A DNA stretch of 9,834 nt. Origin: a virus (taxonomy: Duplodnaviria > Heunggongvirae > Uroviricota > Caudoviricetes). Every line of letters starts with the position of its first letter. Within the stretch, counting starts at the first letter, position 1. The translations under genes and the position numbers were made by a program. The notes beneath the pieces were generated by a model. The model was not told the DNA's origin. It did no database searches and worked only from the letters and a program-made list of their open reading frames with translations. The stretch lies in IMG/VR virus record IMGVR_UViG_2526164631_000019; one strand, given 5' to 3'. Shown piece after piece: positions 1-9,834 of the stretch.

Positions 1-1101
1 GCTATCCATTCCGGGATTTTTGCCTCAAGCTCAAGCTGCGTGGTAAAGCCGCTGTTATCAATGGTGTGCCCGGCTTTTGCAATAATCCAGTCCTGATTAT
101 CAATCTCGCTTTTAAATCCTGTTACCGTGCCATGCATTTCGGGGTAGAGTTCTGCTCGTCCACGTGCCAGCGTGATGGAGAATGATGCGGCTCCGCGTTG
201 TAGTTGTTGCCACTTTGCCGCCGCTGCGCGTCTTGCTGCCTGCTCGTTCTGATAAGTCTTGCGTAACACAAACACATTGCCTTCCGCGCCTTCCATATAG
301 TCACCTTCACGGCTGCTGCTTTTCTCCTTTTTTGGGTTTGGCGGTTTTACGGCGTTTTCACGTCTGACTTTTTTTCTTTTCCCGTAATTAAGATCAAGTC
401 CAGTAGGCGCGTACCCCCGTATACGCTTCGCGGTCAGCAATGCGGAACTGATGGCGATCGCCGCTGCTGCGTGTGATGGCGAACGATGGCAACGGCTGGC
501 CCTGTGCGTTCACGCCACCGCCGGGCATGATGAATAACAGATTACCGCTTTTTACCGTGGTGATTGCGCCCAGCATTTCCGCCATGCGCGTAAGGAAGGA
601 CATGTCGCTTTCTTCGGTCTGGTCGGCGTGGTCGATTTCGATATCCATCAGCATTTCGCTGATTTGCGGTTTCAGACCATACCGATGAGCGATGGCGGAT
701 ACCACACGCTCAACGGTCACATCATGCCAGGACACCTCACGTTTAACGTTAAATTCATCCCGAAAATCTGCGCTTCTGGCTGAAACAGTCAGCCTGTCCG
801 GCGGTCCTTCGTGAGCGATTTCATCAACAATGTAAGTGCCTTTTTCTGTCAGCGGTTCTCCCTTCCAGCCAATGAGAACCGTCAGGCGCGCGCCCCGTGG
901 CGGTAGCTGCAACTGACCATCCGCATCATCCAGCGTGATGGTGAGCTGGTCCGCCTCAAATCCCCGGTTGTCGGTCAGTGACAGGCTCATCAGGCGCTCT
1001 GCCACGCCTGACAGCGTTTTACCCTCCGCGAGAATATCAAAATCCGGCATTTTCACGGGGTCTGTGCCCTGACTGAGCAATTGCATGGTGGTGTCGGTCA
1101 T
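1..1101 (-). CDS. Phage tail protein D (P2 gpD / late control D family); apparent frameshift near 392-401, 3' end beyond left edge of window
   Basis: ORF 394..1233(-) contains the motif SLSLTDNRGFEADQLTITLDD, typical of the gpD family as recalled. The likely start is the ATG at 1099-1101 (MTDTTMQLL), preceded by GGGAGGGAG. The frame ends at a TGA at 394-396, but another minus-strand frame continues as DLNYGKRKK...KWQQLQRGAASFSITLARGRAELYPE...GFTTQLELE to position 1, which reads like the gpD C-terminal half. Confidence 0.8.
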
Positions 1102-1258
1102 CTGCTCCCTCCCTGTGCGGCATGGTCGCATGTGCGTGCGGAGGGGGTTACTGCTTTTTGTTGTCGCCGGGTCGGGAGAACGGCGCAGGGGTGAGATTAC
1201 GCGCGTGGTGGGTGATGATTGTTGCCGAATCATTTAACGGATACAAGGGGCTGAAGCT

Positions 1259-2442
1259 ATGAGTGAAACTCGTTTTCATGGTGCCCGTGTTACGGAAAAT
1301 ACCGACCTGGTAACAGCGATTAACGATGTTGATTCCAGCGTTATCGGTATCGTGGCAACGGCGGATGATGCGGACGCGAAGCTGTTCCCGCTGAACAAGC
1401 CCACACTGCTGACCCGCGTTAATGACGTGCTGGGAAAATGCGGGACAACGGGGACGCTTTATCGTGCGCTTAAGGCCATCGCAGACCAGGTGAGCACAAA
1501 GGTGATCGTCGTTCGCGTGGCTGAACACAAAGAAGAAGACGGAAAGACGCAGGATCAACTGGTTATCGGTGGTTCTGAGGATGACGGCAGCTATACGGGG
1601 ATGTATGCGCTGCTTGTTGCAGAGCAGGATGAAAGCATCGGATACCGTCCGCGTATTCTGGCCGCGCCGGAGCTGGACACGGAGGCGGTGACAAAATCCC
1701 TGTGCGTGATTGCGGGTAAACTGCGCGCGTTTGTGTATGCCTCATGTCACGGCTGTAACACGATGGCTGAGGCGATTACCTACCGCCAGAAATTCAACGA
1801 ACGTGAGGTGATGCTCTTATGGCCGGACTTCATCGCCTACAACCCGAAAAGTGGCAAAAACGAACGTTCCCCGCGCCTGCCTATGCGTGCGGCCTTCGTG
1901 CGTACATTGACCATGAGCAGGGATGGCACAAATCACTGTCCAACGTTCCGGTTAAAAATGTGCTGGGGATGTCGAGGCATGTGTTCTGGTCGTTGCAGGC
2001 CGAAGACAGCGATGCCAACAGCCTCAACAACAAAGAAATCACGACCATTATTCGTCGCAACGGGTTCCGCTTCTGGGGCAACCGCACACCGGAAACGAAC
2101 GCCTACATCTTTGAGGTGTATACCCGAACCGCACAGGTGCTGGCTGATTCAATTGCAGAAGCGCAGTTTGAAACCATCGACAGTCCACTGACGCCTGCGA
2201 ACGTGAAGGATGTTATCAGTGCCATCAGGGCAAAACTGGATTCACTGGTTACTGCCGGGAAACTGATTGGCGCGGAGTGCTGGTATGACGTGGTGGATAA
2301 CAGCACCACGGATTTACGTCAGGGACGTGTGCGTATTCGCTATAAATATACGCCCGTTCCGCCACTGGAAGACATGGAGCTTTACCAGACGTTTACTGAT
2401 GAATACTTTGAACCCGCATTTGCGGTGCTGGGAGGTGCCTGA
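1259..2442 (+). CDS. Contractile tail sheath protein (P2 FI-like); apparent frameshift between about 1856 and 1872
   Basis: ORF 1259..2191 carries the N-terminal two thirds (MSETRFHGARVTE...LLWPDFIAYNPKSGKNE). ORF 1819..2442 in another frame carries the conserved C-terminal part (IDHEQGWHKSLSN...RRNGFRFWGNRT...YTRTAQV...YKYTPVPPLE). The AAGGGG ribosome-binding site lies about 10 nt upstream of the ATG at 1259. Joined length is about 394 aa, typical for sheath. Confidence 0.88.
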
Positions 2443-2953
2443 TGGCTGTGCCAAAACATCTTCGCTTTTTTACGCTGTTTGTGGATGGTGAAAACGAAGT
2501 GGGTAAGGTGACGTCCGTCACTCTGCCCAAACTGACGCGCAAAACCGACAGCTACCGGGGGGGCGCATGATGGGTGCGGTAAGTATTGATCTCGGTCTGG
2601 ACGACTCCGCGCTTGATGCGAGCTTTGTCATGGGGGGCGCAGTTCGTGAGCTGTTCCTTAAGTATGGCGGCACGATTGACGGCACGCTGCTGCGTTTTGC
2701 GGGTGAATACTACACCGATGCAGAAAGCGACCTGTATGAAGTCGAAATGCGCGGACGTGTGACGGAAATTGATATGGGGGAAGCCAAACAGGGCGAAGCC
2801 ACATCACACACTTACGCCATTAAAAACACCTACTACAAGCTGAGTGTTAACGATCGCCCGTTGTGGGAGATTGACCTGCTGAACTTCATTTACCGGAAGG
2901 ACGGCAAGGACATTGTGCCCGATCGCATCCGTTCCGCGCTCGGGCTTGGCTGA
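2442..2953 (+). CDS. Tail tube protein (P2 FII-like); apparent frameshift at G7 homopolymer 2557-2563
   Basis: The ATG at 2442 overlaps the sheath stop (TGATG). The N-terminal ORF reads MAVPKHLRFFTLFVDGENEVGKVTSVTLPKLTRKTDSYRGGA and stops at 2568-2570. ORF 2567..2953 in a different frame continues GAVSIDLGLDD...LRFAGEYY...EVEMRGRVTEIDMGEAKQGE. Both parts match the FII family as recalled (VTLPKLTRK, DLGLDD, MRGR..EID.GE.KQGE). Confidence 0.85.
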
Positions 2954-2965
2954 TAAGTAATATGC

Positions 2966-2986
2966 AGGCGGCGCAGTGCGTCGCCT
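2966..2986 (+). promoter_or_regulatory. GC-rich stem-loop between tube and E genes (possible attenuator or mRNA stability element)
   Basis: AGGCGGCGC agt GCGTCGCCT gives a 9-bp stem with one G-U pair and a 3-nt loop. It sits between the tube stop (2951-2953) and the E ribosome-binding site. No U-tract follows, so it is not a classical intrinsic terminator. Confidence 0.3.
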
Positions 2987-3007
2987 CTGACTGAAAGGAG
3001 TTTCCTG

Positions 3008-3373
3008 ATGAAAGAGACGAAAAACATCGATACCGAAAACACGGTCGTTGCTGACACTGTGAAAGAAACCAGTGAGCGTGGCATAAAACTTACCCAACCA
3101 ATTGAGCGAGGCGGCGAAAAAATCACGTATGTGGAGATCACCGGAGCTATTGAGCAGGCTGGATCTCTGCGAGATTTGTCGTTGTCTGATGTGCTGAATC
3201 TGAAAGCGGAATCCATGTTTACGCTGCTGTCACGCGTGACATCACCGCGACTGGATGAAGTGACGATCAAAAAAATGGCATCCCGTGACTTTATTCAGTT
3301 ATGTGTGGTTGCCGTAAATTTTTTGAGCGGTGCGGACTCTGGCGGGAAGAACGAACAGGCGACGGAAGCCTGA
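3008..3373 (+). CDS. Tail assembly chaperone (P2 gpE-like)
   Basis: 121-aa ORF with AAAGGAG 7 nt upstream of the ATG. Its position directly between tube and tape measure is conserved for this chaperone in contractile-tail clusters. It contains the slippery heptamer T_TTT_TTG at 3319-3325. Confidence 0.75.
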   Translation: MKETKNIDTENTVVADTVKETSERGIKLTQPIERGGEKITYVEITGAIEQAGSLRDLSLSDVLNLKAESMFTLLSRVTSPRLDEVTIKKMASRDFIQLCVVAVNFLSGADSGGKNEQATEA

Positions 3374-3537
3374 TCACGGTTGTGTGCTTTGAGCACATAG
3401 AAGACTTTGTGGCAGATATTGCCGTTATTTTTAACTGGTCGCCCGCCGAAATCTTCATGATGACGCCCGGCGAAGTGGTTAGCTGGCGTGAGCGGGCGGC
3501 ACTTCGCAGCGGGAATGCAGACAATGAAGACTCTTGA
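3008..3537 (+). CDS. Frameshift-extended chaperone (P2 gpE+E'-like), predicted -1 ribosomal frameshift at 3319-3325
   Basis: The -1 frame opens exactly at the slippery site and runs to a TGA at 3535-3537, encoding FERCGLWREERTGDGSLITVVCFEHIEDFVADIAVIFNWSPAEIFMMTPGEVVSWRERAALRSGNADNEDS. Its end overlaps the tape-measure start. Confidence 0.6.
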
Positions 3538-6331
3538 TATCCGGGTCGCTTTCAGCGCCGTTGACAGGCTGACCCGGCCTGCCGAAAACGCCCGCCGCCT
3601 GATGGGGCAGTTTGGTGACTCCATCCAGCGAACGCAGGGGGCGATCAAAAATCTCGAGCGTCAGGCGCGTTCATTTGAGCGCGCCCGCGACGCTGTCAGT
3701 AAAGCGGATGCGGGTATCGTGAAAGCACGACGCCAGCTTAACGCCCTTAATCAGTTACAACGCACGGGTACAGTGCTCAGCGAAAAGCAACAAAAGCTGA
3801 TGCAGCAGTTAAGCACCCGGCTTGAACGCCTGAATGAATCGCGCACACGGGAAATTCAGAAAATGCGGGAGCTTGGCGGAGAGCTGAAACGCCACGGCAT
3901 TTCCCTGACAGGCAGCGATAGCACCATCCAGCAGGCCATCAGACGCACCGAACAGTACAACAACCAGCTTGAACGCGAACGGCAGGCGCTTGCGCGTGTA
4001 ACACGTGCGCGTGAGCGGTATTCGCGCGCGCAGGAAACCGCGGGAAAACTGAAAACAGGTGGTGCGCTGGCAATTGGTGCGGCAGCGGCTGGCAGCTATG
4101 CTGCCGGGCGTTTTTTGCAGCCTGCGATCGGGTTCGGGAAAGAGATGTCCCGCGTTCAGGCACTGACGCGAATCGACCAGAACAGCCCGCAGTTTAAGGC
4201 GCTGCGTGAACAGGCGTTAAAACTTGGCTCTGAAACGCAGTTCACTGCAGGCGATGCCGCCAGTGGGCAGGCATTTCTTGCAATGGCTGGCTTCACTCCG
4301 CAGGCCATTCAGGCTGCGCTTCCCGGCGTACTGAGCATGGCAACGGCTGGCGGTATGGATCTCGGCGAAACGGCAGATATTGGCTCAAATATCCTGACGC
4401 AGTTCGGCCTTTCTGCTGACCAGATGGACCGGGTCGGTGACACGCTCACCGCAGCGTTTACCCGTACCAACACTGACCTTCGCGCACTGGGCGAAACCAT
4501 GAAATATGCAGGTCCGGTGGCGGGCAAGCTGGGAATATCGCTGGAGCAGGCCGCAGCGATGGCGGGCGTGCTGGCGAATATGGGTATCAGGGGAAGTGAT
4601 GCCGGGACGGCAATGCGTGCCAGCCTGGCTCGTCTGGCATCACCGCCAAAGGCGGCAGCAGAGGCGCTGAAAGAGCTTGGTGTGGCAGTCTCTGACGCGA
4701 ACGGCAAAATGCGCCCGATGGAGGATGTGCTGGCTGACCTTTATAAAGCCACCCGCAAATACGGGGAAGTTGACCGGGTATCGTTCTTTAAGGATATTGC
4801 CGGAGAAGAGGCTTTCACATCATTTATGGCCCTCGTTGATGCGGCAGGTGACGGCTCCTTACCCAAACTGAGAAAAGAACTTGAAGGCGCGCGCGGTGAG
4901 GCTGAACGCACAGCAAAGGTTATGGCCAACAACCTTGACGGCGATCTGAAATCACTCGGCAGTGCATGGGAAGGGGTGCGCATCCGCATTGCAGATCTGA
5001 TTGACGGTCCGCAGCGTTCTGTCACGCAGTGGCTCACGCGGGTGGTATCGAAGGTGACGGCGCTGGCGCAGGCCCATCCGGCACTGACGCGCCAGCTACT
5101 GGTTGCAGGCGGTGCTCTGCTGGCAATGACTGCAACCATAGGCTCGTTGTCGCTGGCTATTGGTGTGCTTGCTGGCCCACTGGCAAAACTGCGTCTTGGT
5201 TTTTCCCTCCTGACCGGATCATTGAATGTTGTCAGGGTTCTGCCTGCATTATGGGGAATGGTGACGGGTTCCATTTCGTTACTGGGAGGCGCTATCGGGG
5301 CGCTGTTCAGTCCGGTCGGATTGATTGCTGCTGCGTTTGTGGCTGCGGCGGTTCTCATCTGGAAATACTGGGAACCCATCAAGGCGTTTTATGCAGGGGT
5401 GTTCAGTGGGATTATGGAGCGACTGGCCCCGTTGCGCGAAACCTTTGAACGGTTTGGCCCTGTTTTTGACGCAATCGGAAGCGGGATCAGCCAGGTGTTT
5501 AACTGGTTTAAATCGCTGCTGTCACCGATGGAGTCCAGCAAGGAAACGCTGGATAAATGTACCAGTGCTGGCGAGATATTCGGTAACGTTCTTGGCGGTG
5601 CGTTACAGCTTGTTCTGACACCTGCAAAAATGCTACTGGATACGCTGGCGTGGATACTTGAAAAACTCGGTGTGCTTCCGGATGAAGCGGAAAGGGCGCG
5701 CAAGAAAATCGAAGACGCACAGCGTGCGGCCATTCTTCAGGACAAGGTTGCCTTGCTTCAGGGGGACCTGGCGAAAATCAATCTGCCGAAGCCTGTGGAA
5801 AATGGCAATGGCACCGGAGGTGATAAACCCAAAGACAACAAACCGCTCACAGACAGCAATACCGGTACGCTACGCAGACTCAGCAAAATTGCTGATAACA
5901 CAGGTAAGCTGGTTGATGAGACGAAAAAACGCATTGGCCCCGGCGATATTGTCTTTAAGAACCTGCCCCGCGCACTTGCTGTTCGTGGGGAGTGGCAGGA
6001 GCGGAAGATTGCGCAGGTCAGTAAGCCTGCTTCCGCAATCAACATCACACCCGTGGTCCCGACTCCTCTGCCTCCGGCGCTGGTCCCTGTTGTTGCGGCC
6101 AGCTCCCGCCCGGTGGCGGAGGCCATACGATCGCCAGTGGCATCAGTTCCTGCAACTTCCCGTAACCGGGAGCCTGTTGTCTCCGGATTTGGCGGTGAAA
6201 TTCATGTTCATCTGCATAACGTTGTTACGCAGAATCCCCGCGAACTGGCGAAACTGGTCGGTGAAATGGTCAGGGCAGAATTGGAACGACGCGACCGTGC
6301 CGGACGTGGCAGTTTTTACGATAAAGATTGA
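3515..6331 (+). CDS. Tail tape measure protein (P2 gpT-like)
   Basis: Uninterrupted ORF of roughly 940 aa. The N-terminal region is rich in charged, coiled-coil-like sequence, the central region has long Gly/Ala/Leu-rich hydrophobic stretches and the C-terminus is Pro-rich, which is typical for tape measure proteins. Candidate starts are GTG 3488, ATG 3515 and ATG 3524; the exact start is uncertain. Confidence 0.9.
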   Translation: MQTMKTLDIRVAFSAVDRLTRPAENARRLMGQFGDSIQRTQGAIKNLERQARSFERARDAVSKADAGIVKARRQLNALNQLQRTGTVLSEKQQKLMQQLSTRLERLNESRTREIQKMRELGGELKRHGISLTGSDSTIQQAIRRTEQYNNQLERERQALARVTRARERYSRAQETAGKLKTGGALAIGAAAAGSYAAGRFLQPAIGFGKEMSRVQALTRIDQNSPQFKALREQALKLGSETQFTAGDAASGQAFLAMAGFTPQAIQAALPGVLSMATAGGMDLGETADIGSNILTQFGLSADQMDRVGDTLTAAFTRTNTDLRALGETMKYAGPVAGKLGISLEQAAAMAGVLANMGIRGSDAGTAMRASLARLASPPKAAAEALKELGVAVSDANGKMRPMEDVLADLYKATRKYGEVDRVSFFKDIAGEEAFTSFMALVDAAGDGSLPKLRKELEGARGEAERTAKVMANNLDGDLKSLGSAWEGVRIRIADLIDGPQRSVTQWLTRVVSKVTALAQAHPALTRQLLVAGGALLAMTATIGSLSLAIGVLAGPLAKLRLGFSLLTGSLNVVRVLPALWGMVTGSISLLGGAIGALFSPVGLIAAAFVAAAVLIWKYWEPIKAFYAGVFSGIMERLAPLRETFERFGPVFDAIGSGISQVFNWFKSLLSPMESSKETLDKCTSAGEIFGNVLGGALQLVLTPAKMLLDTLAWILEKLGVLPDEAERARKKIEDAQRAAILQDKVALLQGDLAKINLPKPVENGNGTGGDKPKDNKPLTDSNTGTLRRLSKIADNTGKLVDETKKRIGPGDIVFKNLPRALAVRGEWQERKIAQVSKPASAINITPVVPTPLPPALVPVVAASSRPVAEAIRSPVASVPATSRNREPVVSGFGGEIHVHLHNVVTQNPRELAKLVGEMVRAELERRDRAGRGSFYDKD

Positions 6332-6337
6332 GGAGTC

Positions 6338-6832
6338 ATGGCCATGATGATGATCTACGGCATGTTTGTTTTTGAGCTGCGCACATTGCCGCATCAGCAG
6401 TTACAGCAAAATAAAAGCTGGCGGCATGTGAAAAATGAACGCGTTAACCGTTCAGCAAGCTGGCAGTATATCGGGGCAGGCGATGATCGCATCGTGCTTT
6501 CTGGTGTGCTTTATCCTGAAATCACAGGTGGCGAAGTGTCGCTGTCGCTGCTGACCACGCAGGCGTATACAGGACGCCCCTGGCCTCTGATTGATGGCGT
6601 CGGACAGATTTACGGCATGTATGTACTGACTGAAACGAATACGACCCGCTCCGAGTTTGATCGCTACGGTAAGGCGAAAAAGATAGAATTTTCACTGACT
6701 CTTGAACGCTGTGATGAGGATTTGCGGGAGCGCCTGCAATCCTCATCGTTCAGTGATATGCTGTCCGGCTTCAAAGATAAGGTCACATCATCCCTTAACA
6801 GCGCGGCCAGCTCCGTTAAAGGGCTGTTTTGA
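6338..6832 (+). CDS. Tail protein U (P2 gpU-like)
   Basis: The product begins MAMMMIYGMFVFELRTLP and contains WRH...LSGVLYPEITGG...WPLIDG...IYGMYV...RSEF, matching gpU as recalled. GGAG at 6332-6335 favours the ATG at 6344 as the true start. The gene follows the tape-measure stop directly. Confidence 0.85.
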   Translation: MAMMMIYGMFVFELRTLPHQQLQQNKSWRHVKNERVNRSASWQYIGAGDDRIVLSGVLYPEITGGEVSLSLLTTQAYTGRPWPLIDGVGQIYGMYVLTETNTTRSEFDRYGKAKKIEFSLTLERCDEDLRERLQSSSFSDMLSGFKDKVTSSLNSAASSVKGLF

Positions 6833-6839
6833 TTAACGC

Positions 6840-6869
6840 AAAACCGCTAATGGTCAGATTAGCGGTTTT
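6840..6869. terminator. Hairpin terminator between convergent gpU and invertase genes
   Basis: AAAACCGCTAAT ggtcag ATTAGCGGTTTT is a perfect 12-bp stem with a 6-nt loop, followed by a T-rich run (cattttcc) on the plus strand. It starts 8 nt after the gpU stop and overlaps the last codons of the invertase ORF. Confidence 0.6.
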
Positions 6870-7458
6870 CATTTTCCTGAGTCTGCCTGGTTGTTTCTTC
6901 AGCCTGTATATCGCCTACAGGGTGATAACGATAAATCGTCGATATGCCGATGTCGTAAATGATCGCCAGTTGTTTCCTGTCATGACCGTTTTTAATCAGC
7001 CTCGCTATTTGCTCGTGTTGTTCTTTTGTCAACTTCGGGCGACGTCCGCCAATGCGTCCTTGTGCGCGTGCTGCTGCCAGCCCGGCCAGTGTACGCTCTA
7101 CAATTAATTCACGTTCCATTTCGGCTAAAGCTCCCATGACGTGAAAAAAGAAACGCCCCATGGGTGTTGATGTGTCAATGCTGTCCGTTAGACTACGGAA
7201 ATTAACACCTTTTTCCCGCAATTCCTCAATAAGCGTGATCAGGTGTTTCATACTTCTGCCCAGTCTGTCCAGCTTCCAGACAACCAGCGTATCTCCTTCT
7301 GATAGCGTTCTGAGCAGTTTTTTCAATCCCGGTCTGGCTGATTTCGTTCCGCTGATTTTATCTTCAAAAATCAGTTCACATCCTGCGCACTCCAGCGCGT
7401 TACGCTGCAATTCTGTATTCTGGTCATTTGTTGATACGCGGACATAGCCAATAAGCAT
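6859..7458 (-). CDS. Serine site-specific DNA invertase, Hin/Gin/Cin/Pin family
   Basis: The 199-aa product begins MLIGYVRVSTNDQNTELQRNALECAGCELIFEDKISG and contains TLVVWKLDRLGRSMKHLI, FRSLTDSIDTSTPMGRFFFHVMGALAEMERELI and GGRRPKLT, nearly identical to Gin/Hin over the catalytic domain as recalled. The catalytic Ser is at position 9. A C-terminal helix-turn-helix region follows, then a tail of about 15-20 extra residues. Confidence 0.95.
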   Translation of the reverse strand: MLIGYVRVSTNDQNTELQRNALECAGCELIFEDKISGTKSARPGLKKLLRTLSEGDTLVVWKLDRLGRSMKHLITLIEELREKGVNFRSLTDSIDTSTPMGRFFFHVMGALAEMERELIVERTLAGLAAARAQGRIGGRRPKLTKEQHEQIARLIKNGHDRKQLAIIYDIGISTIYRYHPVGDIQAEETTRQTQENENR

Positions 7459-7513
7459 GATGGATCCCCTGAATAAAAACCGGGGATGATGCCAGTTAGC
7501 CGTAATCTCTGCA

Positions 7514-7539
7514 TTTTCTTAAACGTTGGTTTAGGAGAA
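7514..7539. repeat. Crossover site 1 for the invertase (hix/gix/cix-like 26-bp site)
   Basis: TTTTCTTAAACG TT GGTTTAGGAGAA. Its reverse complement TTCTCCTAAACC AA CGTTTAAGAAAA resembles the hix consensus TTCTTGAAAACC AA GGTTTTTGATAA. The central dinucleotide is at 7526-7527, 68 bp from the invertase start codon. Confidence 0.8.
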
Positions 7540-7884
7540 GCGGCAAAACGGAATGTGGGCACAGGAGATAATCAGATACCGGATATGGGAGCATTCGCTT
7601 CTGGTTCGGGATGGTTCAGGCTACCAGGTGGATATATTGTTCAGTTTGGCACTTTTGCAGGAAACACGACCCGCTTTATCAGTGGACACTTCCCTATACC
7701 ATTCCCTAATCAGCCGATGGTTTCAGTCAGTGTTATGTCTGATGCCGTTCAGTCAGACCCGTCGATTCCTGCCCCGCAGGTTTTGTCTGTAAATTTTGAA
7801 CATATCAGTAATTCAGCGTGGCGTGTGGCAACCAGTGATATCTCACAGCAATACAGATTCAGTTATATTTCGATAGGACGGTAG
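7528..7884 (+). CDS. Silent alternative tail-fibre C-terminal cassette (no start codon of its own; expressed only after inversion)
   Basis: An open frame starts at the crossover core and encodes [62 protein letters not shown]...[12 protein letters not shown], ending at TAG 7882-7884. The first codons (GGT TTA GGA GAA = GLGE) match those just inside the site in the expressed fibre gene. A tail-fibre assembly gene follows 2 nt downstream. Confidence 0.7.
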   Translation, partial: [118 protein letters not shown]

Positions 7885-7886
7885 AA

Positions 7887-8327
7887 ATGCAGAAATATAT
7901 TTTCAGTGCCGATAAAAATGCGTTTTTCCCTGTGGAGCTTAAAATCGCTTATCAGGAATCCGGCGAATGGCCCGATGATGGAATCGAAATTGACGACACT
8001 GTTGCTGCCGAATTTATGAAGGAAGCACCAGAAGGAAAATACAGAGGTGTCATCGACGGAATGCCTGCATGGATTGATATTCCACCGCCAACTCATGAGG
8101 AACAAATTGCCGCAGCCGAACTGAAAAAGCAGCAATTGATTAATCAGGTCAACGAATACATAAACAGTAAGCAATGGCCTGGTAAAGCGGCGATTGGTCG
8201 CCTGAAAGGTGAGGAACTGGTGCAATATAATTTGTGGCTGGATTATCTGGACGCACTGGAACTGGTCGATACTTCCGGTGCGCCAGATATTGAATGGCCT
8301 ACGCCTCCGGCAGTTCAGGCCAGATGA
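7887..8327 (+). CDS. Tail fibre assembly protein (Tfa), partner of the silent cassette
   Basis: 146-aa ORF with AGGA 8 nt upstream of the ATG. The C-terminus LVDTSGAPDIEWPTPP is the Tfa-type motif also found in the convergent Tfa (TDTSTAPDVIWPELP). Its position directly after a fibre cassette fits the role. Confidence 0.85.
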   Translation: MQKYIFSADKNAFFPVELKIAYQESGEWPDDGIEIDDTVAAEFMKEAPEGKYRGVIDGMPAWIDIPPPTHEEQIAAAELKKQQLINQVNEYINSKQWPGKAAIGRLKGEELVQYNLWLDYLDALELVDTSGAPDIEWPTPPAVQAR

Positions 8328-8892
8328 CATCCGGTGCGGTGCTGGTATCTGTTGCCGTCACCGCGTCAATATAATCCAGCACAGCGTTAAGTCGGGTGTT
8401 TTCTGGCTGCGTCAGCTTCCGCACGGCCTGTAATTTCAGTTGAATCAGACTGATGGAAGCCATTGCAGCATCAATCAGCGACTGGCGCTTTACTTCTGCC
8501 GCGTCTAGTGCGGCGCTATGCTGTGCCTCGGTATCCGTCACCCATTTCTCACCATCCCATTTATCGTATGGCGTTAACGGTGAAAGCGTGACATAACCGT
8601 CTTTGATGGCACCGATATAATCCACTGTAACAGCTGCGCCATTTTCGATTGAGTAAACAGTCTCATTGCGGTGGTCTTCTTCATGGCTCCATCCCTTACC
8701 CGTAAATACTGCCACTCTTCCCGGAATGTATTCGCCCGGGTCAATACCAGTGGAACAAGCGGGCATACTTACGCCAGTATTAATATATTCATCAGACCAG
8801 CCAGTATATTCATACGTAACTGCCTCATAATAAAAACAACGCATATTACCCGGTACTGTAGCCAGCCCATTTTCATCAAAAACAGGTTTCAT
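8299..8892 (-). CDS. Tail fibre assembly protein (Tfa), partner of the currently expressed fibre C-terminus
   Basis: 197-aa ORF whose ATG overlaps the fibre stop codon by 1 nt (TAATG). The C-terminal motif is TDTSTAPDVIWPELPEA. It lies inside the invertible segment. Confidence 0.85.
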   Translation of the reverse strand: MKPVFDENGLATVPGNMRCFYYEAVTYEYTGWSDEYINTGVSMPACSTGIDPGEYIPGRVAVFTGKGWSHEEDHRNETVYSIENGAAVTVDYIGAIKDGYVTLSPLTPYDKWDGEKWVTDTEAQHSAALDAAEVKRQSLIDAAMASISLIQLKLQAVRKLTQPENTRLNAVLDYIDAVTATDTSTAPDVIWPELPEA

Positions 8893-9834
8893 TATTTAGC
8901 CCTCACTAGAAAGTTAAATGCAATATTTCGTGGGCGGGTTTCTGTACCTACATTTCCACTAATTTCACCATAACGTTTAACGCTACGAGAGCTAATAGCT
9001 CGTAGTGAGGAAGGCACCCTAAGACCGGGTTCGTCCGTTTTAACTATTCCCCCGTCACCATATGTAGCCAGTATTCCTGGGTTTACTCCTTCCCGTGTAC
9101 TTCCTGCGACAAGCCCGTCCCCCGTCCACAATTCCATATTGTGTGCATGATCCATAATTGTGTGTGATTGCCCTGAAAGTAGGGTACGTCCGACATCAAT
9201 CCCGCGTCCGTCATCCCAGATACGAATGAAATCACCGCGTGCGTCAGGTAATGCCAGCGCCGGAAACACTTTCGCCAGCACAGGGTAATCAGTGGCAGAG
9301 AATTTCGCGCCGTTGAACTTCAAAAACACCATGCTGGACCAGCTATCGATTACGGTATCTGGCATTGCTGCGGACGGCCAGAAGAACGGAACGCCAATAG
9401 CTGGAGCACCTTCTCCCAAACCAAGGTAATCAAGAACTCCCTGAGTGCTGGTTTTACCAAGAATGGCACGTCCAACACTTGTCAACGCGGTTAACGCGGC
9501 ACGATCTGCCCCTGTAAAATATGGGAGTTTATCTGCTGATGTAGCAAGCTCCGCCAGCGCCGTCAGGGTGGCATCCTTCGGTTGCTTACCCGCAAGCGCG
9601 TTAGTCATGGTGGTCGCAAAATTCGGGTCATTGCCCAGCGCCGCAGCCAGTTCGTTCAGCGTGTTCAGTGCATCAGGTGACGAATCTACAAGTGCGGCAA
9701 TCGCAGCCATAACGAAAGCCGTGCTTGCGATCTGGGTACTATTAGTCCCCTGTGGCGCTGTTGGTGTTGTTGGCGTTCCGGTCAGTGCCGGGCTGTTTAA
9801 TGGTGCTTTCTTGTTCGTTTCATCCATTACCGCC
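8892..9834 (-). CDS. Tail fibre protein (P2 gpH-like constant region fused to variable C-terminal domain); 5' end beyond right edge of window
   Basis: The frame is open to the window edge, so the Met at 9827 is internal. The constant part (DETNKKAPLNSPALTGTPTTPT...NTLNELAAALGNDPNFATTMTNALAGKQPKDATLTALA) resembles P2-type fibres as recalled. The part downstream of the crossover site contains a tail-collar-like motif (LPDARGDFIRIWDDGRGIDVGRTL). Confidence 0.9.
   Translation of the reverse strand, partial: AVMDETNKKAPLNSPALTGTPTTPTAPQGTNSTQIASTAFVMAAIAALVDSSPDALNTLNELAAALGNDPNFATTMTNALAGKQPKDATLTALAELATSADKLPYFTGADRAALTALTSVGRAILGKTSTQGVLDYLGLGEGAPAIGVPFFWPSAAMPDTVIDSWSSMVFLKFNGAKFSATDYPVLAKVFPALALPDARGDFIRIWDDGRGIDVGRTLLSGQSHTIMDHAHNMELWTGDGLVAGSTREGVNPGILATYGDGGIVKTDEPGLRVPSSLRAISSRSVKRYGEISGNVGTETRPRNIAFNFLVRAK
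9411..9436. repeat. Crossover site 2 for the invertase, inside the fibre coding sequence
   Basis: TTCTCCCAAACC AA GGTAATCAAGAA is inverted relative to site 1. The half-site inside the segment matches the reverse complement of site 1 at 11 of 12 positions, and the core AA is identical. On the minus strand it encodes VLDYL-GLGE with the core in codon positions 2-3, the same phase as at site 1. Confidence 0.8.

Follow-up and report, generated by a model that had tools for sequence, protein, structure and literature searches.

A split gpD gene in a draft contig of Escherichia coli DEC12A is very probably an assembly artefact

The stretch of DNA analysed here (9,834 nt, referred to throughout as the window) raises the question of why a gene for a baseplate hub protein should be divided between two reading frames. 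On the minus strand at the beginning of the window, a gpD-type reading frame stops early, and the remainder of the gene continues in another frame. The break could be a mutation of the prophage, a device for regulated or recoded expression, or a fault of the sequence record. We therefore considered the gene as it stands in the record, its counterparts in a finished genome and in related prophages, and the condition of the neighbouring tail genes.

Gene D as read in the record

The minus-strand ORF 1101..394 encodes 235 amino acids of a gpD-type protein. It begins with an ATG at 1101-1099 (MTDTTMQLLSQG...ADREAYTGVRAYWT) and ends with ...YTGVRAYWT at a TGA located at 396-394. A second minus-strand frame, read from position 398 (LDLNYGKRKKVRRENAVKPPNPKKEKSSSREGDYMEG...ELEAKIPEWI), contains no stop codon down to window position 1, and the contig edge lies 13 nt short of the stop codon of D in orthologues. 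Instead of the single ORF of approximately 365-390 amino acids that characterizes this gene, the record therefore holds an ORF that is broken at codon 236, whose 235-residue product carries the accession EHX22381.1 ('bacteriophage late control protein [Escherichia coli DEC12A]'). Deletion of one base at the junction fuses the two halves. A preliminary description of this DNA had placed the end of the N-terminal half at this TGA after YTGVRAYWT, and its coordinates, peptides and stop codon are all correct.

The same description had assigned the adjacent frame, up to the window edge, to a gpD-like C-terminal half, and Pfam family PF05954 (Phage_GPD) bears this out. The N-terminal half matches profile positions 48-190 with 28.1 bits, and the C-terminal half matches positions 213-304 with 26.3 bits. 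Each half taken alone scores below the gathering score of 30.1, on complementary parts of the profile, whereas the intact strain 12A orthologue, taken from the finished genome, matches positions 48-304 with 63.3 bits. A broken gpD gene is thus genuinely present in the sequence record. This is far beyond chance, since intact D genes from P88-like phages and from over 1,100 E. coli genomes show 97-99% DNA identity to it.

The gene itself is an ordinary and well-known D gene of the P2/P88 type ('late control D', PF05954, VgrG/Pvc8-like), which encodes the baseplate hub. The first 1,300 bases of the window are 97-98% identical to the D region of phages P88, Shae_phiSM and PhiR44_2 (Xuanwuvirus, Peduoviridae), and they are found at 95-99% identity in over 1,100 complete E. 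coli genomes. In the P88-like phage and E. coli records, D is one ORF of 1,110 nt (369 amino acids). The neighbourhood is also that of P2/P88-like D genes, with D oriented divergently from the sheath-tube-E-T-U block and with contig genes of the Phage_sheath, Phage_tube, GpE, PhageMin_Tail and GpU families placing it in a P2-type tail cluster. Downstream of D, the orthologous loci carry ogr and hok. The record departs from its relatives in the split at codon 236, in a scrambled linker of 17 residues, and in its end 13 nt before the stop codon.

Alignment with orthologues identifies the base that breaks the frame as an extra A at position 399. The coding strand reads TGG-A-CTT (TGG^CTT), where orthologues carry TGGCTTGAT, encoding W L D, and the inserted base creates the in-frame TGA. 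The preliminary description had proposed that removal of one T would fuse the halves. A one-base deletion does so, but the inserted base is A399 and not a T, because orthologues read Y-W-L-D-L at this place and deletion of a T would give Y-W-T-D-L.

A399 does not stand alone. Eight differences unique to the window, all of them involving A, fall within the 67 nt from 333 to 399 of gene D. On the D coding strand, A5GA6 has become A4GA7 at 376/375, an A has been added at 363 (CAG^CGT), A3 has become A4 at approximately 358 and again at approximately 348, and A4CCCA5 has become A3CCCA6 at 336/333. The pairs at 376/375 and 336/333 are formally readable as double substitutions, although a change in run length suits the context better. 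The downstream frame of D stays open because the three extra A residues at 363, ~358 and ~348 sum to +3. The preliminary description overlooked seven further indel-type differences within 67 nt downstream as well as the mosaic structure of the D end described below. It had also noted the lack of a long homopolymer at the indel. It is true that A399 lies outside any run; this is nevertheless no argument for a real mutation, because the site borders on a stretch at the end of the contig in which run-length differences, all of them in A, are densely packed.

Table 1. Positions of the features of gene D, of the neighbouring lesions and of the allele patches in the window.
Feature	Position	Strand	Remarks
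gpD N-terminal part (baseplate hub, Phage_GPD)	394..1101	-	235 aa, premature TGA, EHX22381.1
gpD C-terminal part, +1-shifted frame	1..398	-	open to contig edge
Frame-shifting extra A (T on + strand), between TGG and CTT	399..399	-	without counterpart in the strain 12A copies and in 118/118 readable IMG/VR loci
Cluster of A-only run-length differences, Lys-rich linker	333..376	-	net +3 nt; KKKKVSVKRRKPPKPKK to KRKKVRRENAVKPPNPKK
Copy-2 allele patch	48..282		7/7 discriminating positions: 48, 70, 84, 156, 165, 207, 282
Second copy-2 allele patch	427..523		6/6 discriminating positions: 427, 442, 475, 487, 520, 523
One-base deletion in the sheath gene, AAA to AA	1862..1865	+	relative to both strain 12A copies; same error class
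One-base deletion in the tube gene, GG to G right after G7-C	2564..2566	+	relative to strain 12A copy 1; same error class

Comparison with a finished genome and with orthologous loci

In its entirety, the window is contig AIHA01000057.1, which belongs to a draft assembly (GCA_000250215.2) from 2012 of E. coli DEC12A, a strain of serogroup O111. The AIHA prefix belongs to drafts of the DECA collection published in 2012, whose genome announcement is reportedly that of Hazen et al. 2012. The complete chromosome of E. coli O111:H2 strain 12A (CP077479.1), for which a literature search for CP077479 found no paper, matches the whole window at 99.7%, while the next best genomes reach at most 97.4%. 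Base-by-base alignment of the window with prophage copy 1 of CP077479.1 yields only 26 differing columns. Positions 3215-9834, which include the highly strain-specific tail-fibre and invertase part, are identical to copy 1. On the basis of name, O111 serogroup and sequence identity, strain 12A is very probably DEC12A.

Strain 12A carries two P88-like (P2-type) prophages. The second copy, located near 2.23 Mb, is 98-99% identical to copy 1 across the tail region corresponding to window positions 1-6500. In both copies D is an uninterrupted ORF of 369 amino acids, and the copy-2 protein is annotated as WP_000132785.1, the same accession as the intact D of strain 99-3165. The lesion is therefore missing from both prophage copies in an independent sequence that is very probably of the same strain, which provides the resequencing that the preliminary description had proposed as a check. 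When the extra A is disregarded, the gpD of the window equals the strain 12A proteins outside the linker, save where the two copies differ. A search of strain 12A with the D region of the window returns three D-like places. The third cannot hold the version seen in the window, because all places in all records are at most 95% identical over positions 300-460, but it could have supplied reads to the scrambled consensus.

Two further tail genes on the contig are damaged in a similar manner. The sheath gene (1259..2442) is split into an ORF of 310 amino acids (1259..2191) and a second frame that ends at 2442. The tube gene (2442..2953) is split into ORFs of 42 amino acids (2442..2570) and 128 amino acids (2567..2953), and the altered run there is the GG beside G7 rather than G7 itself. 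Both genes are annotated as intact in the two strain 12A copies. Sheath, tube and hub are three essential tail genes, and each is broken by a single-base indel on one contig of 9.8 kb.

A three-way alignment reveals the origin of the substitutions. Wherever the window shows a substitution relative to copy 1 (16 positions), it carries the copy-2 allele. Most are grouped in the two patches of Table 1, of which the second is bounded by copy-1 alleles at 406 and 544, and isolated copy-2 alleles occur at 933, 3182 and 3214. Up to position 6500 the window otherwise agrees with copy 1, at 104 positions that tell the two copies apart (for example 300, 327, 349, 406, 544, 862 and 908). Over 900 nt the window thus passes from the alleles of one copy to those of the other at least five times, and does so more densely towards the contig end. 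These alternating patches indicate that a repeat was collapsed into a chimeric consensus, most strongly at the D end. Among the differences unique to the window there is no unambiguous substitution, and each is readable as an indel or as a change in run length, so that relative to the finished genome the window differs only by changes of this kind and by alleles of the paralogous prophage.

The survey of orthologous loci gives the same picture of gene D. The sequence TACTGGCTTGATCT lies in one frame at 118 of 118 IMG/VR loci with a readable junction, an intact D of 369 amino acids is encoded by at least 91 of 120 IMG/VR loci, and the canonical linker occurs in at least 120 IMG/VR contigs. The junction string of the window has no exact match in IMG/VR. 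The truncated 235-residue protein is found on exactly one contig in an index of 153 billion genes. With the C-terminal frame as protein query, no match at full coverage rose above 93% identity, which is weak evidence since this search compares only representatives of 90%-identity clusters. The alignment with intact orthologues that had been suggested as a check accordingly finds the split in none of the orthologues examined, and gpD similarity in the downstream frame.

We also considered whether the linker of the window might be a natural variant. This was rejected, as the DNA encoding VRRENAVKPPNPKK has no exact match in IMG/VR, and none of the 5,426 complete E. coli genomes exceeds 95% identity over positions 300-460.

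Some variation of the linker is seen in other records. The second A-run of the linker is shortened from A6 to A5 at 5 of 119 orthologous IMG/VR loci, one of which has a compensating change from A4 to A5 further downstream, and the D linker of phage P88 has an in-frame deletion of 9 nt. To judge from these sequences, the Lys-rich linker of D is length-variable or error-prone across databases generally.

Competing explanations for the split

Cryptic P2-like prophages with inactivated tail genes are common, and the broken gene could in principle be one more pseudogene. In such a case the DEC12A stock of 2012 would have carried a decaying P88-like prophage with real frameshifts in D, sheath and tube, and with gene conversion from the second prophage at the D end. 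The occurrence of A6 to A5 variants in the linker of other loci, and the fact that the extra A residues at 363-348 total +3 and keep the frame open, are compatible with this account. We nevertheless regard it as very unlikely. D, sheath and tube are intact in both copies of the finished genome, which is very probably from the same strain, and the truncated product is a singleton. Moreover, about ten indels with no unambiguous unique substitution over 9.8 kb do not constitute a mutational spectrum, and decay would have to be reconciled with the repeated allele switches in the 900 nt at the contig end. Highly improbable, too, is the related proposal that the Lys-rich linker is a real indel hotspot and that the hub gene of the 2012 stock was truly frameshifted (phase-variable or recently inactivated), this state being later lost, or absent, in the stock that yielded the finished genome. 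A further proposal, in which slipped-strand switching in the A-runs of the linker turns the hub gene on and off and the draft caught the OFF variant of part of the culture, is extremely unlikely. The linker does hold A5GA6, A4 and A5 runs, and the one-nucleotide change of A6 at five of the 119 orthologous loci, once with compensation downstream, is what slippage might produce, although those variants may be draft errors too. However, the frame-breaking A399 is outside any run, runs of five or six A residues are short for efficient slippage, and eight simultaneous changes are unlike a switch. A prophage also gains no obvious benefit from turning off its own baseplate hub.

The arrangement of the two frames invites a different thought, namely that full-length gpD is made by a programmed +1 ribosomal frameshift at ACU-UGA, similar to that of prfB. 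A slip at ACT TGA gives ...YWT-DLNYG..., exactly the fused protein, and a G-rich stretch (GGGGG) lies upstream at 416-412. This G-run is, however, approximately 13 nt from the shift codon, whereas the stimulator of prfB is 3 nt away, and re-pairing from ACU to CUU is not cognate. The junction TAC TGG ACT TGA TCT contains neither an X_XXY_YYZ heptamer nor a CUU_UGA motif. The two-frame arrangement is not conserved either, as the orthologues, including both strain 12A copies, are all single ORFs with TGGCTTGAT. With an arrangement unique to one contig and no slippery site, programmed frameshifting in D has a negligible probability and is in practice excluded. The same window provides a true programmed site for contrast. 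The slippery heptamer T_TTT_TTG at 3319-3325 (+) is in frame in gene E (ORF 3008..3373), and the -1 frame ORF 3301..3537 carries the GpE (PF06528) part. This site corresponds to the established programmed frameshift E/E+E' of the P2-type tail assembly chaperone, a genuine tail gene of the same cluster that uses two frames. The D junction differs from it in having no slippery heptamer, in needing a +1 shift, and in an arrangement that is not conserved in orthologues.

A chimeric draft consensus and its consequences

We consider it highly probable that the break in D is an artefact of the draft assembly published for E. coli DEC12A in 2012, produced by a chimera of two prophage copies together with miscounted A residues, and that the real gene is a single ORF of 369 amino acids. 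This conclusion follows from the presence of single-base indels in three tail genes, the lack of any unambiguous private point mutation, and the absence of the lesions from the finished genome. The frameshift in the D gene of the record is very probably not biological. The pattern of differences matches errors of run length and not mutational decay, in which substitutions should outnumber indels. It resembles errors in early next-generation drafts in that the differences are of the indel type and nearly all concern the lengths of mononucleotide runs, in that those unique to the window are absent from the finished genome, and in that they crowd together at a contig end that lies within a near-identical repeat.

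While the lesion's absence from the finished genome and the difference pattern are observed, we infer the platform and the cause at the level of reads. The draft contig would have run into a repeat of about 6.5 kb that is 98-99% identical, and near the contig end the assembler would have mixed reads of both prophage copies into a chimeric consensus. In the A-rich and homopolymer-dense Lys-rich linker, base calling or consensus formation would then have miscounted A residues eight times, and one spurious A (399) would have brought TGA into frame in what is presumably a single 369-residue ORF for a P2 gpD-type baseplate hub. The DECA drafts were presumably made from 454 Titanium reads with the Celera assembler. 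A 2012 paper that involved sequencing at the same centre describes 454 Titanium paired-end reads and the Celera assembler. Two of the changes do not conform to a simple homopolymer miscount. Unlike homopolymer errors, the insertions at 399 (TGG^CTT) and 363 (CAG^CGT) extend no existing run and put a new single A between G and C. These two insertions might derive from misaligned reads of the paralogues or of the third D-like place.

The two kinds of explanation differ in what they predict for the DNA. An assembly artefact predicts TACTGGCTTGATCTTAATTACGGGAAAAAGAAAAAAGTCAGCGTGAAACGCCG across window positions 300-460, whereas a real mutation predicts TGGACTTGA with the alleles of one copy. For purposes of quality control, no conclusion about split tail genes, recoding or prophage decay should be drawn from the contig, and EHX22381.1 and the neighbouring deposited fragments are to be regarded as probable truncation artefacts. 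Where a draft contig ends in a repeated prophage, a practical test is to align it with every paralogue of that prophage in a finished sequence of the strain. If all substitutions are alleles of paralogues and all other differences are indels, then the 'frameshift' is technical.

Several observations on annotation and on the remainder of the contig were made along the way. In several finished genomes the RefSeq annotation of D is only a 'VgrG/Pvc8 family' CDS of 266 amino acids that starts from an internal codon (e.g. CP077479.1 copy 1, locus L005, 11736-12845, and locus L003), and a partial antisense 'hypothetical protein' pseudo-CDS overlaps the 5′ part of D in those genomes. This call is an annotation inconsistency and not a lesion, because the full 369-residue ORF is open, at least in L005. 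The product names in OR565851.1 (Citrobacter phage Shae_phiSM, L004) are apparently off by one gene, with a sheath-sized CDS named 'late control gene D protein' and a D-sized CDS named 'ogr/Delta-like zinc finger'. Elsewhere in the window, a gene for a serine recombinase of the Gin/Cin type (Resolvase + HTH_7; 6859-7458, minus strand) adjoins oppositely oriented tail-fibre-assembly genes at 7486-8892, and a gp53-like C-terminal fragment is also located beside the recombinase. Together, these two regions look like an invertible tail-fibre (host-range) segment.
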